IMG/VR virus record: IMGVR_UViG_2872703611_000004
Origin: a virus
Taxonomy: Duplodnaviria; Heunggongvirae; Uroviricota; Caudoviricetes
Length of the DNA stretch: 47,047 bases
Strand: one strand, 5' to 3'
Below, one piece after another: positions 11,141-14,593 of this stretch (positions are counted from its first letter, which is position 1; each line of letters starts with the position of its first letter). A program made the position numbers and the translations under genes. The notes under the pieces are model-generated. The model did not search any database, was not told where the DNA came from, and was given only the letters and a program-made list of their open reading frames with translations.

Positions 11141-11838
11141 AAAACATCGCCGCACAGATGGTTAACTTTGACCGTGAGCAGATGCGTCGGATCGCCAACA
11201 ACATGCCGGAACAGTACGACGAAAAGCCACAGGTACAGCAGGTAGCGCAGATCATCAACGGTGTGTTCAGCCAGTTACTGGCAACTTTCCCGGCGAGTCT
11301 GGCTAACCGTGACCAGAACGAACTGAACGAAATCCGCCGCCAGTGGGTTCTGGCTTTCCGGGAAAACGGGATCACCACAATGGAACAGGTTAACGCAGGA
11401 ATGCGCGTAGCCCGTCGGCAGAACCGACCATTCCTGCCATCACCCGGGCAGTTTGTTGCATGGTGCCGGGAAGAAGCATCCGTTATCGCCGGACTGCCAA
11501 ACGTCAGCGAGCTGGTTGATATGGTTTACGAGTATTGCCGGAAGCGAGGCCTGTATCCGGATGCGGAGTCTTATCCGTGGAAATCAAACGCGCACTACTG
11601 GCTGGTTACCAACCTGTATCAGAACATGCGGGCCAATGCGCTTACTGATGCGGAATTACGCCGTAAGGCCGCAGATGAGCTTGTCCATATGACTGCGAGA
11701 ATTAACCGTGGTGAGGCGATCCCTGAACCAGTAAAACAACTTCCTGTCATGGGCGGTAGACCTCTAAATCGTGCACAGGCTCTGGCGAAGATCGCAGAAA
11801 TTAAAGCTAAGTTCGGACTGAAAGGAGCAAGTGTATGA
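11137..11838 (+). CDS. P: Lambda replication protein P (DnaB helicase loader)
   Basis: 233 aa MKNIAAQMVNFDREQMRRIANNMPEQYDEKPQVQQVAQIINGVFSQLLATFPASLANRDQNELNEIRRQWVLAFRENG... Confidence 0.95.
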   Translation: MKNIAAQMVNFDREQMRRIANNMPEQYDEKPQVQQVAQIINGVFSQLLATFPASLANRDQNELNEIRRQWVLAFRENGITTMEQVNAGMRVARRQNRPFLPSPGQFVAWCREEASVIAGLPNVSELVDMVYEYCRKRGLYPDAESYPWKSNAHYWLVTNLYQNMRANALTDAELRRKAADELVHMTARINRGEAIPEPVKQLPVMGGRPLNRAQALAKIAEIKAKFGLKGASV

Positions 11839-12008
11839 TGGGCAAAGAGGCAATTATTCATTACCTGGGGACGCACAAGAGCTTCTGTGCGCCGGACGTT
11901 GCTGCGACAACAGGTGTGACATTAACCAGCATAAATCAGGCTGCGGCAAAAATGGCGCGGGCAGGAATCCTGGTCATTGATGGTAAGGTCTGGCGAACGT
12001 TTGTTTAA
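11835..12008 (+). pseudogene. ren: Truncated ren (57 codons instead of ~96); marks a module junction
   Basis: MMGKEAIIHYLGTHKSFCAPDVAATTGVTLTSINQAAAKMARAGILVIDGKVWRTFV then stop; start overlaps the P stop; sequence after the stop is unrelated. Confidence 0.55.
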
Positions 12009-12154
12009 CGGTTAGCTACTCAGGATGATAGGGCGGGGCAAGTGAGTATGAAGCGGATTTTCAGGAATGCCATCAGAGTTTGGAAATAAAGTGGGTTTTC
12101 TAGTGGCAAGAGACTTGATAATATTTAGTTCTTTGAATCCAAGGAGATAGGGTT

Positions 12155-12649
12155 ATGAGAAAATTTATTTTAGCCTTTGTTATAAGTGCCTCGTTTACAG
12201 CAAATGCTGGTGTAGAGAAGTTAGGGCCGTGGATAACAAAGTCTGAGATAAATAAAATGACTGACCAGACTGACTTTGTGGCCCTTAATTTATCACCAGA
12301 TTCATATAACAAAGCAGGTACTGATCGTGCAACTTCACTGGTGTTGCGTTGTAGTGATAACAAAACAGATGCCTATTTATCATTCAATGATTATATGGGT
12401 TCGGACAACCCAAGAATTACAGTGCGGTTAGATGGCGGAAAGCCGGTCAAGAGTGTTTGGGGAGGTGGGGAAGGCGGTGATTCTGCATTTGCTCCACAAC
12501 CAATACAATTTATAAAGACCTTGGCTAAGCATAAAAAAGCTATTTTTGGGTTTGAACCTTATGGATCAACTATGCAAGTAGTTGAGTTTGACTTGTCTGA
12601 GATTGATAAGGTTGTGGAAAAAATTTCACAGTCTTGCAATTGGAAATGA
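12155..12649 (+). CDS. Hypothetical secreted/periplasmic protein with cleavable signal peptide; moron of unknown function
   Basis: 164 aa; SD AAGGAG 8 nt before ATG; N-terminus MRKFILAFVISASFTANA-GVEK is a signal peptide; two Cys; AT-rich; followed by a terminator. Confidence 0.7.
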   Translation: MRKFILAFVISASFTANAGVEKLGPWITKSEINKMTDQTDFVALNLSPDSYNKAGTDRATSLVLRCSDNKTDAYLSFNDYMGSDNPRITVRLDGGKPVKSVWGGGEGGDSAFAPQPIQFIKTLAKHKKAIFGFEPYGSTMQVVEFDLSEIDKVVEKISQSCNWK

Positions 12650-12666
12650 CAAAAAAATTTCATATG

Positions 12667-12693
12667 AACCCAGTTTGCGCTGGGTTTTTTATT
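12667..12693 (+). terminator. Rho-independent terminator after the secreted-protein moron
   Basis: AACCCAG-TTTGCG-CTGGGTT followed by TTTTTTATTT. Confidence 0.75.
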
Positions 12694-13684
12694 TCAGTAG
12701 CCAATAATGCATTCAAAATCTCTTACTTGAGAAACGGCCTATTTGAGATTTCAGTCGTGGCAGGATGATCAGTTGATTCGAGTATTGACGCATTTGCGTT
12801 CGGAGCGATTACAGTAGATTGTAAATAATAATGAGAAACACATAGCCACCCCGTGGTATTGAAACCATATAATGTTGGATTTGAAAACAGATCTTTTCCC
12901 ATGTATTAATAACTACATCCCCGCGAGTGATTCAAAAAGGAGGGCCCAATTTTGTCCGAGTTTTTGTATTCCCCCGCATGCCGCTGCGGAGCACTACATC
13001 TGAGTGTCTGACTAGGGGATAAAATTAGACTGGATAGTGAGAAGAAAGTGGCGCGCTAGGCTGTGCCGAGTGCTACCAGTACACCTTGGGGGTGTGCAGC
13101 TTTCGCCGAGACTGTAGTGGGTATCGGTTAATGCACGAAAAACCGAGAGGTCAGACAACCAATTTGCCGTAGGATTGTTTCCGGTGCGATACCGGTCTAC
13201 TAACTGAAAGCAATGCGAAAAAGCATAAACTCGGTCCTTCAGTCGCCCTACACACTATTTACTAAGAAGGGCTGAAGCATGGATACAATTATTACATGGA
13301 TGGGAGATCGTCTGTTGGGGGGACACAAAAATCCGATCTGCGGCAGATGGCGATCACTGGATTAACTTCCGCGATTTGTTCAACAATTTTGTACACTGAA
13401 AAATTAAAACATGGTGAGCCTATTAACCCAAACGAAGAAGAAAAACTTTATAGGCTTTGGTATGAAGGAAACGCTTGAAAGAATAAAGCACAATTAAAAC
13501 CTTTGATTTGCGATAATCAACTTGCCATAATTAAGTAATCGGAGTCTGAACAACTCCGGTGACTTCTGCGCTAAACGGGGACGTTTATGCGCACATACAA
13601 TCCAAACTATCTTCTCCTTTCACAGATGCAGAAATGCACCTGCAATTCTTTGCATCTAGCGTTTGACCTCTGCGGAGGTGAAGC

Positions 13685-14140
13685 GTGAACCTCCCACAAG
13701 ACGGCATCAAATTACATCGCGGCAACTTCACCGCTATCGGCCAGCAGATCCAGCCTTATCTGGAGGAAGGCAAATGCTTTCGCATGGTGCTTAAACCGTG
13801 GTGCGAGAGACGCAGTCTTTCCCAGAATGCACTCAGCCACATGTGGTACAGCGAAATCAGTGAATACCTCATCAGCAGGGGTAAAACGTTCGCCACTCCA
13901 GCTTGGGTAAAAGATGCTCTCAAACACACATATCTCGGTTATGAAACCAAAGACCTGGTTGATGTCGTAACCGGTGATATCACCACTATCCAGTCGTTAC
14001 GCCATACCTCCGATCTTGATACCGGAGAGATGTATGTCTTCCTGTGTAAGGTTGAAGCCTGGGCGATGAATATTGGTTGCCACCTGACTATTCCACAGAG
14101 CTGCGAGTTCCAGCTGCTGCGCGACAAGCAGGAGGCGTAA
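13685..14140 (+). CDS. ybcN: DLP12-type YbcN (DNA base-flipping protein family)
   Basis: 151 aa [62 protein letters not shown]...; matches my memory of K-12 YbcN. Confidence 0.75.
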
Positions 14141-14310
14141 TGGCTACACCGCTTATTCGTGTCATGAACGGACACATCTACAGAGTACCAAATCGTCGTA
14201 AGCGTAAACCTGAGCTGAAGCCATCCGAAATACCAACACTGCTCGGATATACCGCCAGCCTGGTTGATAAAAAATGGTTGCGACTGGCAGCAAGGAGGAG
14301 TCATGGCTGA
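14140..14310 (+). CDS. ninE: NinE
   Basis: 56 aa [56 protein letters not shown]; start overlaps the ybcN stop (TAATG). Confidence 0.7.
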   Translation: MATPLIRVMNGHIYRVPNRRKRKPELKPSEIPTLLGYTASLVDKKWLRLAARRSHG

Positions 14311-14593
14311 TTTGAGAAAAGCAGCGCGTGGTCGGGAATGCCAGGTAAGAATCCCTGGCGTATGTAATGGCAACCCTGAAACGTCTGTACTGGCACATAT
14401 CCGGCTGACTGGATTGTGCGGCACCGGTACGAAACCGCCAGACCTGATTGCCACCATTGCATGTTCTGCCTGCCACGACGAAATCGACCGCCGCACTCAT
14501 TTTGTCGATGCTGCATATGCAAAAGAATGCGCGCTGGAAGGTATGGCGAGAACACAGGTTATCTGGCTGAAAGAGGGGGTTATTAAGGCGTGA
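14303..14593 (+). CDS. ybcO: YbcO-like (DUF1364 putative nuclease, Cys-rich)
   Basis: 96 aa [64 protein letters not shown]...; SD AAGGAGGAG upstream. Confidence 0.7.

Follow-up and report, generated by a model that had tools for sequence, protein, structure and literature searches.

A putative structured RNA module in the nin region of lambda-like phages of Enterobacterales

Phage morons are cassettes made of a promoter, a gene and a terminator, inserted between conserved lambdoid genes. The element described here follows the same plan. It occupies positions 12917-13247 (+ strand) of a 47,047-nucleotide (nt) stretch of DNA (IMG/VR record IMGVR_UViG_2872703611_000004; hereafter the window), which is a DLP12-like lambdoid prophage. 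We read it, with a probability of about 0.6, as an autonomous gene for a structured non-coding RNA of about 331 nt, forming a self-contained module in the nin region of lambda-like phages of Enterobacterales. It was recognised from its conservation between unrelated flanks, from structure counts and from strand asymmetry. As in morons, the module appears autonomous: it has a putative sigma-70-type promoter and, in most lineages, an intrinsic terminator of its own. It is located in the accessory nin region, has mosaic borders and adjoins another moron. Its cargo is different, however, as it consists of a 331-nt structured RNA instead of a protein gene.

Several other described systems share some of these features. 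GOLLD, ROOL and other Rfam motifs are also phage- or prophage-borne multi-helix RNAs which emerged from comparative analysis and whose function is not known, but the present RNA matches no Rfam family, is smaller (331 nt), is found only in lambdoid phages of Enterobacterales, and has a putative promoter of its own as well as an internal Shine-Dalgarno (SD) sequence and a short open reading frame (ORF). Prophage small RNAs (sRNAs) such as DicF, AsxR/AgvB and the Pas sRNAs are 50-150 nt long and act with seed regions. Our RNA is prophage-encoded too and probably expressed in the lysogen, but it has a 331-nt multi-domain fold and no conserved target, and the Rfam models of these sRNAs do not match it; the Pas sRNAs, considered as possible relatives, turned out to be unrelated. 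In type III toxin-antitoxin systems and in RCd22/AbiF, as in most lineages of the RNA, a promoter, an RNA, a terminator and a promoter-less protein gene follow each other. The RNA nevertheless lacks the tandem repeats of type III systems (in 12650-13690, direct repeats do not exceed 11 nt), its downstream proteins are mutually unrelated without any toxin or defence match, and it persists after loss of the downstream gene. The absence of tandem repeats and of a conserved downstream endoribonuclease toxin rules out a type III antitoxin. Similarly, no reverse transcriptase, which a retron would have beside it, was found among called or annotated neighbours in any context. RCd22 is a phage RNA located upstream of an Abi toxin, which it controls and neutralises (bioRxiv 10.1101/2025.04.15.648962). 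Finally, RNA anti-CRISPRs that mimic the repeats in clustered regularly interspaced short palindromic repeat (CRISPR) arrays (Racr) are small, consist of intact repeat units and carry their inhibitory part 5' of the hairpin (PMC10651486), and viral regulators resembling CRISPR RNA (crRNA), or Cracr, have also been reported (bioRxiv 10.1101/2024.10.29.618823). Like them, the RNA is encoded by phages or prophages, lies directly behind a putative promoter and reproduces the stem and 3' flank of a host repeat. It differs from them in that the repeat is split by an 87-nt insert and comes without a second repeat or a spacer-like target match, in being several times larger and in its non-conserved handle region, and its binding to Cas6e is only predicted.

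The borders of the element emerge from comparison with other phages. The block 12917-13247 shows 71-79% identity to Klebsiella phages Kp4856-1 and Kp4862-1, in which the flanks are unrelated, and it is also present in many IMG/VR and metagenome contigs, again with unrelated flanking DNA. Homologues were searched with an nhmmer profile, and further copies were reached through two recurrent downstream proteins, in prophages of Obesumbacterium proteus, Enterobacter bugandensis and Citrobacter braakii (the last being the most divergent variant). The RNA is hosted by phages and prophages in five genera (those of E. coli, Klebsiella, Enterobacter, Citrobacter and Obesumbacterium), in 32 distinct variants of 329-331 nt each, which fall into about six clades recombining among one another. 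Its distribution is narrow: it occurs in 158 of the 5,426 complete E. coli genomes, always as a single copy (at least 99% identical in 154 of the 158), in 4 of the 50,697 phage records, and in about 64 of 2.9 million IMG/VR contigs. Two additional scans of IMG/VR, both degenerate, recovered these ~64 contigs again without adding any distant relative. A plasmid search gave no match to the RNA, and a gapped pattern had 0 matches in species-representative genomes; ten 18-mer matches in the latter were due to chance, as the nhmmer alignments covered no more than 22-37 nt about the seed. The gene was also detected in two disrupted copies (L066:3088-3400, and L017, minus strand, near 14206-14300). 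The first is cut at nt ~303 by an insert whose first ORF exceeds 270 amino acids (aa) and looks, by its appearance, like an IS21-family transposase; the second has unrelated sequence in place of the entire 5' domain (nt 1-97), and its junction lies immediately 5' of GGGGAU.

None of the 158 RefSeq E. coli genomes carrying the RNA has it annotated. On both strands, Rfam 15 gave no match over 11800-14500 (E<=1), nor over 12900-13270 (371 nt; E<=10). ARAGORN detected no tRNA or tmRNA in 12000-14000, and the RNA is not described in the literature that was searched by sequence strings, phage names and topic. Judged by these searches, the RNA family is new, with no detectable relative; this claim of novelty is made for the family and does not extend to a mechanism.

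A structure model was obtained from the 32-sequence alignment using RNAalifold and manual refinement. It comprises 85 pairs in 15 helices, with a 5' domain (nt 1-104 of the RNA) and a 3' domain (nt 112-328). Paired cells amount to 95.3%, versus 31-46% in controls in which the 3' partners were slid by 1-3 columns; 22 pairs changed on both sides, versus 2-8 in these controls, and the covariation score is 0.205, versus 0.04-0.054. None of 500 shuffles reached the observed values. The best supported helices are 128-133/183-188, 138-140/154-156, 164-169/175-180, 189-197/204-212 and 226-231/314-319. The two domains are predicted to be linked by a pseudoknot (nt 90-96/234-240, that is 13006-13012 with 13150-13156, + strand), in which GUCUGAC (90-96) is exactly complementary to GUCAGAC (234-240). 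In the Citrobacter variant, C96-G234 is replaced by U-A, which supports a pseudoknot joining both domains, and G90-C240 becomes G-U; a local hairpin first predicted at the pseudoknot strand was dropped, as the Citrobacter changes favour the inter-domain pairing. Hairpin 164-180 is wholly rewritten in the same variant. At the base of the 5' domain, helices P1 (12917-12922/13015-13020) and P2 (12923-12925/12975-12977) are essentially invariant among the 32 variants: P2 never varies, and P1 shows two departures, each in a single variant.

The excess of G-U cells (262) over A-C cells (6) indicates that the + strand is the folded one. A protein-coding reading of either strand is rejected by stop codons and by the lack of codon periodicity. 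Indeed, no reading frame is open in all variants, every frame having stops in most of them, and variable columns are spread over the three codon positions (47/41/47); in addition, indels of 1-2 nt occur among variants. A minus-strand frame is stop-free (109 codons) in 8 of 28 variants and contains 1-4 stops in the other 20, which was taken as chance. Altogether, it is very likely that the block is a real structured RNA gene.

A putative sigma-70-type promoter (12881-12910, + strand) was located by phylogenetic footprinting of 26 distinct upstream sequences. In the window, it consists of a -35 element TTGAAA (12881-12886), an 18-nt spacer and a -10 element ATTAAT (12905-12910) preceded by TG, which would place the start of the RNA at about A12917. 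A -10-like (A/T)T(T/A/G)AAT ends exactly 6 nt 5' of the RNA in 26 of 26 sequences, and TTGnnn is found 17-18 nt upstream of it in all but L052 (TGGCCA); the spacer and the DNA farther upstream diverge. At the other end, a hairpin of -11 to -18 kcal/mol followed by a U run starts 5-9 nt past the end of the RNA (...CAGUCGCC) and forms a terminator in every lineage lacking a downstream gene for a 118-aa protein; in one of these lineages, the sequence of the stem is unrelated to the others. In lineages with the 118-aa gene, including that of the window, there is no terminator after the RNA.

The genes surrounding the RNA are not constant. At least five unrelated genes are found downstream, encoding proteins of 118 aa, 183 aa (phrog_27260), 178-191 aa (with two hydrophobic ends, probably a membrane protein), 93 aa, and DUF1367, and the upstream genes vary as well. 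The downstream proteins match neither defence models (PADLOC) nor Pfam toxins. Both the 118-aa and the 183-aa families are also found without the RNA, phage Kp4856-1 carries the RNA without the 118-aa gene, and the E. coli copies of the RNA have remained intact next to a decaying downstream gene. Such interchangeable neighbours, and the persistence of the RNA beside a decaying gene, suggest that the RNA is an independent module, in effect an RNA moron. We also observed that the 176-183-aa protein located behind the terminator (L004:4385-4936 in Klebsiella phage Kp4856-1; L110:2501-3031) contains an R-x4-H motif, RHNLLH, which is reminiscent of HEPN RNases, although this protein has no Pfam or PADLOC match.

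We propose that the RNA would be made in the lysogen from its own promoter and would act in trans, with the binding of a protein (as a decoy or within a ribonucleoprotein) as its most probable mode rather than base-pairing or control of a neighbour, because its neighbours change, its long unpaired stretches are invariant and no conserved antisense target was found. We consider action in trans to be an even bet. The long invariant single strands (UGGAUAGUG, GAGAGGUCAGACAACCAA and GAAAGCAAUGCGAAAAAGCAUAAACUCGG) have no conserved complementary target in the prophage, and exact complementarity within the 47-kb window is at chance level. The invariant loop forms its best duplex with the ribosome-binding region of ybcN (13661-13675), but this pairing ranks only 3rd-4th of about 6200 windows and is absent in other ninB alleles, and it was rejected as a conserved target. 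Invariant CCGAGAGGUCAGAC (nt 227-240, 13143-13156) may pair with GUUUGACCUCUGCGG (13661-13675) at -24.1 kcal/mol, probably by chance; GUUUGACCUCUGCGG overlaps the first bases of the ybcN SD.

An initial annotation of the interval between the moron and ybcN had pointed to a strong SD followed by a 19-codon ORF starting with TTG. Both are present in the sequence, within the 5' domain of the RNA (+ strand): the SD AAAGGAGGG lies at 12936-12944, and the ORF runs from TTG at 12952 to TGA at 13009-13011 (12952-13011) and encodes MSEFLYSPACRCGALHLSV. Two forms of a 7-nt anti-SD match, AAGGAGG and GGAGGUG, have been conserved 6-8 nt from UUG, and the frame and its stop are kept in 25 of the 28 variants examined; the other three, from E. 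coli, have a stop at codon 13. Variation is free at residues 13-16, there is no synonymous excess, and third positions account for only 2 of the 6 variable sites in codons 2-12. Helix 26-29/38-41 takes up the final SD bases together with the start codon; in one clade, it shows a G.U to U-A compensation. Alternatively, the SD may pair with nt 317-324 (95% of cells paired, with only U/C changes opposite G), a 3' segment for which nt 226-231 compete with the SD.

These data have to be weighed against readings other than an autonomous RNA gene. The main rival, which we nevertheless regard as doubtful, is a cis-acting leader (an attenuator or riboregulator) gating transcription or translation of the next cargo gene; translation of the 19-codon ORF, or a bound factor, would perhaps determine its fold, and it would serve as a portable cassette for toxic or defence-type cargo. 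Indeed, the RNA invariably precedes the next gene by 30-80 nt and shares its strand, the space from the terminator to the following start codon is too short for a separate promoter in terminator-bearing lineages, and the terminator-less junction with the 118-aa gene is conserved in three RNA clades. The competition between the SD and nt 226-231 for nt 317-324 would provide a possible switch, and RCd22/AbiF offers an analogy. However, the genes downstream of the RNA belong to at least five unrelated families, none of which matches a defence model, instead of to the one functional class expected behind a riboswitch or leader, and both recurrent partner families occur without the RNA. Moreover, the E. 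coli RNA is 99-100% identical while its downstream gene is deleted or frameshifted, as in the window, no conserved antiterminator alternative was found (the terminator of one lineage being unrelated in sequence), and 331 nt with a pseudoknot is far above the size of known attenuators. Quite improbable in our view is a dual-function gene, in which the SD and UUG would drive synthesis of a 19-aa peptide (MSEFLYSPACRC...) and the remainder would be a stabilising or regulatory 3' part. The conserved spacing of the two SD forms, the retention of frame and stop in 25 of 28 variants and the absence of any indel inside the ORF agree with this possibility, but the truncation of three E. coli variants at codon 13, the scarcity of third-position changes in codons 2-12 and the partial sequestration of the SD and start codon in a covarying helix do not. 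In addition, the free residues 13-16 coincide with a hairpin showing compensation at the RNA level (pair 73/84), and the ORF covers only 60 of the 331 conserved nt. That the block represents neutral recombination debris without any functional element is hardly credible. Two real gene remnants do flank it and its single-sequence folding energy is unremarkable, but homologues with sharp borders in five genera, a constant length, compensatory changes far above controls and the co-occurrence of a promoter and a terminator with the block all speak against neutral decay.

If the RNA binds a protein, Cas6e/Cascade of the host type I-E CRISPR system stands alone as a concrete candidate, although a decoy for it seems unlikely. 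The type I-E repeat of K-12, as read from the genome, is GAGTTCCCCGCGCCAGCGGGGATAAACCG (also given as GAGUUCCCCGCGCCAGCGGGGAUAAACCG), and the Cas6e cleavage position adjoins the stem of this repeat (GGGG/AU). The RNA starts with AUCCCCGCG, in which UCCCCGCG occupies nt 2-9; nt 59-61 (CGC) pair with G7-G9, nt 60-61 supplying the GC of the 3' strand, and nt 99-107 read GGGGAUAAA. Stacked P1 and P2 thus reproduce all six stem pairs of the repeat (CCCCGC/GCGGGG) in order, followed by the 3' flank AUAAA (region 12917-13024, + strand). In the decoy reading, these helices would mimic the repeat hairpin and titrate Cas6e and Cascade subunits off crRNA, perhaps with a cut after G102. The 17 matched bases (UCCCCGCG plus GGGGAUAAA) were reached by only 2 of 5000 dinucleotide shuffles, the stem begins 2 nt past the probable transcription start, and both helices are essentially invariant. 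Papers on E. coli, Salmonella, Klebsiella and Cronobacter contain the K-12 repeat string as well, so that the hosts overlap in part (Escherichia and Klebsiella). On the other hand, known Racrs are small, with intact repeat units and an inhibitory part upstream of the hairpin, whereas the RNA has nearly no such upstream sequence, and its would-be spacer has no match in the K-12 cas locus (a spacer-like match of only 9-10 nt was put down to chance). Moreover, type I-E CRISPR is usually silent in E. coli. That the RNA is a large counter-defence scaffold of a novel type, the base of which would capture Cas6e/Cascade while the pseudoknot-tied 230-nt 3' domain adds a second activity, for example holding host factors, is just as unlikely as the decoy.

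Other observations weigh against our reading, in its Cas6e version or as a whole. The repeat resemblance was noticed post hoc, an 87-nt domain takes the place of the repeat loop so that the 3' strand is discontinuous, the 8 nt after GGGG differ by clade (AUAAAAUU, AUGAACCA, AUGAAUCA, AUGGAACA, AUAGAUUA and AUUAAUAG), and 230 nt of conserved structure are left without explanation. No acr- or aca-like gene was recognised in the vicinity; the neighbours (the ant-like stump, phrog_12412, phrog_27260 and similar) all lack an Acr or Aca annotation. The strong conservation of the SD, start codon and ORF suggests an involvement of ribosomes, which a pure decoy would not explain. As for the structure, P1, P2 and most of the pseudoknot are not probed by covariation owing to their invariance, the single-sequence fold is no more stable than shuffles (z = -0.4), and the compensatory changes are partly non-independent, given about six recombining clades. 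The RNA promoter was not called by a generic consensus promoter scan, because position 2 of its -10 element is not A; promoter and 5' end are placed by phylogenetic footprinting. As there is no terminator before the 118-aa gene, the RNA would in these lineages physically be at least a 5' untranslated region. Finally, what we propose on transcript, processing and phenotype alike draws on sequence comparison.

The interval 12694-13684, in which the RNA is located, belongs to a region with the gene order O, P, ren pseudogene, VasI/TagO-like moron, gap, ybcN, ninE, ybcO, rusA, ylcG, quuD and porin gene. This early-right operon is elsewhere tightly packed, and a gene-free kilobase is unusual there. 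The ORF listing bears out the initial annotation in that no ORF exceeds 60 aa (the longest are 60 aa at 13296-13478, +, 59 aa at 12723-12902, -, and 48 aa), the GC content it called ordinary was measured at 0.37-0.48, and the short inverted repeats it mentioned were found. Its statement on the content of DLP12 is correct as well, as emrE, ylcJ, ybcK, ybcL, ybcM and ylcH lie between renD and ybcN in K-12. Its suggestion of a structured RNA, made without locating borders or promoter and without choosing a single reading, proved fruitful: the 331-nt RNA is backed by covariation, a putative promoter and a terminator, the last being absent from the lineage of the window. The Rfam search it recommended matched no family, while folding and covariation on an alignment of homologues, which it recommended too, revealed compensatory changes well above controls. 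Its second suggestion, decayed genes at a recombination junction, holds for both flanks, each with a gene remnant, but not for the central block, which is conserved and shows compensatory changes. Its third, micro-ORFs, has a candidate in the 19-codon ORF. RefSeq leaves the DNA from the moron to a 33-aa ORF without annotation in strains identical to the window. On comparison with related phages, the gap is a mosaic of a terminator, a gene stump, a putative promoter, the RNA, a pseudogene and a phage-82-type promoter/ylcH piece. The kilobase looks empty because the RNA module is intact while the protein genes on both sides are truncated or frameshifted.

The VasI/TagO-like gene upstream of the gap (12155-12649, +), a classical moron annotated as TagO, matches PF11319 and phrog_1848. 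Its 164-aa product is weakly VasI-like (type VI secretion associated), with an N-terminal hydrophobic stretch resembling a signal peptide. The moron has its own intrinsic terminator (12666-12697, +; a 9-bp stem followed by a T run, found by a scan), and its GC content is lower (0.37-0.41 over 12155-12697). Further upstream, RefSeq entries of identical strains describe ren (11835-12103) as carrying a frameshift and an internal stop; the prophage is decaying around ren, yet the RNA is intact. The gene stump (12729-12817, +) is the 3' end of an antirepressor-like gene (P22_AR_C), identified by BLAST and by alignment to phage Turner. The last ~90 nt of the gene are kept, with a TAG stop at 12815-12817; BLAST homology to Turner begins at 12729 (query position 80), and the stump was aligned to L003:2900-3200. 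The ant-like gene of Turner is intact (107 aa; the protein matches PF10548 at 1e-15) and comes after emrE and a ybcK-like serine recombinase. As Turner is a free-living temperate phage that carries emrE (annotated QacE) and the ybcK-like large serine recombinase at the DLP12 position (L003:539-2654), these "K-12 prophage" genes appear to be cargo of an active phage lineage.

Downstream of the RNA, a pseudogene of the 118-aa protein (phrog_12412) extends over 13279-13478 (+), as supported by alignment to GB089 and Turner, ORF comparison and a PHROG match. Two events inactivated it: the G run 13317-13322 has 6 G where close relatives have 7 (a -1 frameshift), and 134 bp were deleted after 13467, between 9-bp direct repeats GGTATGAAG (13459-13467). 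The weak 60-aa ORF of the initial annotation (13296-13478) is the out-of-frame remainder of this gene, according to alignment to relatives. The intact protein is predicted to form a four-helix bundle (pLDDT 80); the model has no significant structural neighbour in PDB, and the protein has no Pfam or PADLOC match. Besides, nt 45-59 of the RNA (UUUUUGUAUUCCCCC, 12961-12975) are complementary at 14 of 15 positions to the G-run region of the pseudogene (13317-13331), only in the lineage with the shortened 118-aa gene and not in Turner. The remainder of the gap contains a promoter-like TTGATT-17-CATAAT (13503-13531, +), matched by a promoter scan, and an inverted repeat upstream of ylcH/ybcN (13535-13563, +), which matches the annotation of phage 82. 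In the phage 82 record (X92588), the same elements upstream of orf33/orf151 are annotated as putative -35, -10 and "possible regulator-binding site", and the piece 13503-13563 is present in about 2760 E. coli records. The 33-aa ORF (13587-13688, +), equivalent to ylcH (orf33 of phage 82), extends into the beginning of ybcN (13685-14140).

Few genetic elements have been studied as thoroughly as the lambdoid prophages of E. coli and Klebsiella. The RNA nonetheless stands unannotated in all of the E. coli genomes carrying it and has no Rfam match. Its fold, invariant single strands and probable promoter have been kept in five genera amid swapped or destroyed genes, which points to selection for a function, be it in the lysogen or during infection. 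It resides in the accessory region where phages usually place defence and counter-defence cargo. It may be the founding member of a group of protein-sequestering "RNA morons" in temperate Enterobacterales phages. If its resemblance to the CRISPR repeat is functional, RNA anti-CRISPRs would gain a new architecture and reach hosts of clinical importance. Otherwise, the RNA would still be a well-defined new target for structure and function studies, and a workable one, as both lysogens and free phages (Turner, IdasGreatGrand and Kp4856-1) are available.

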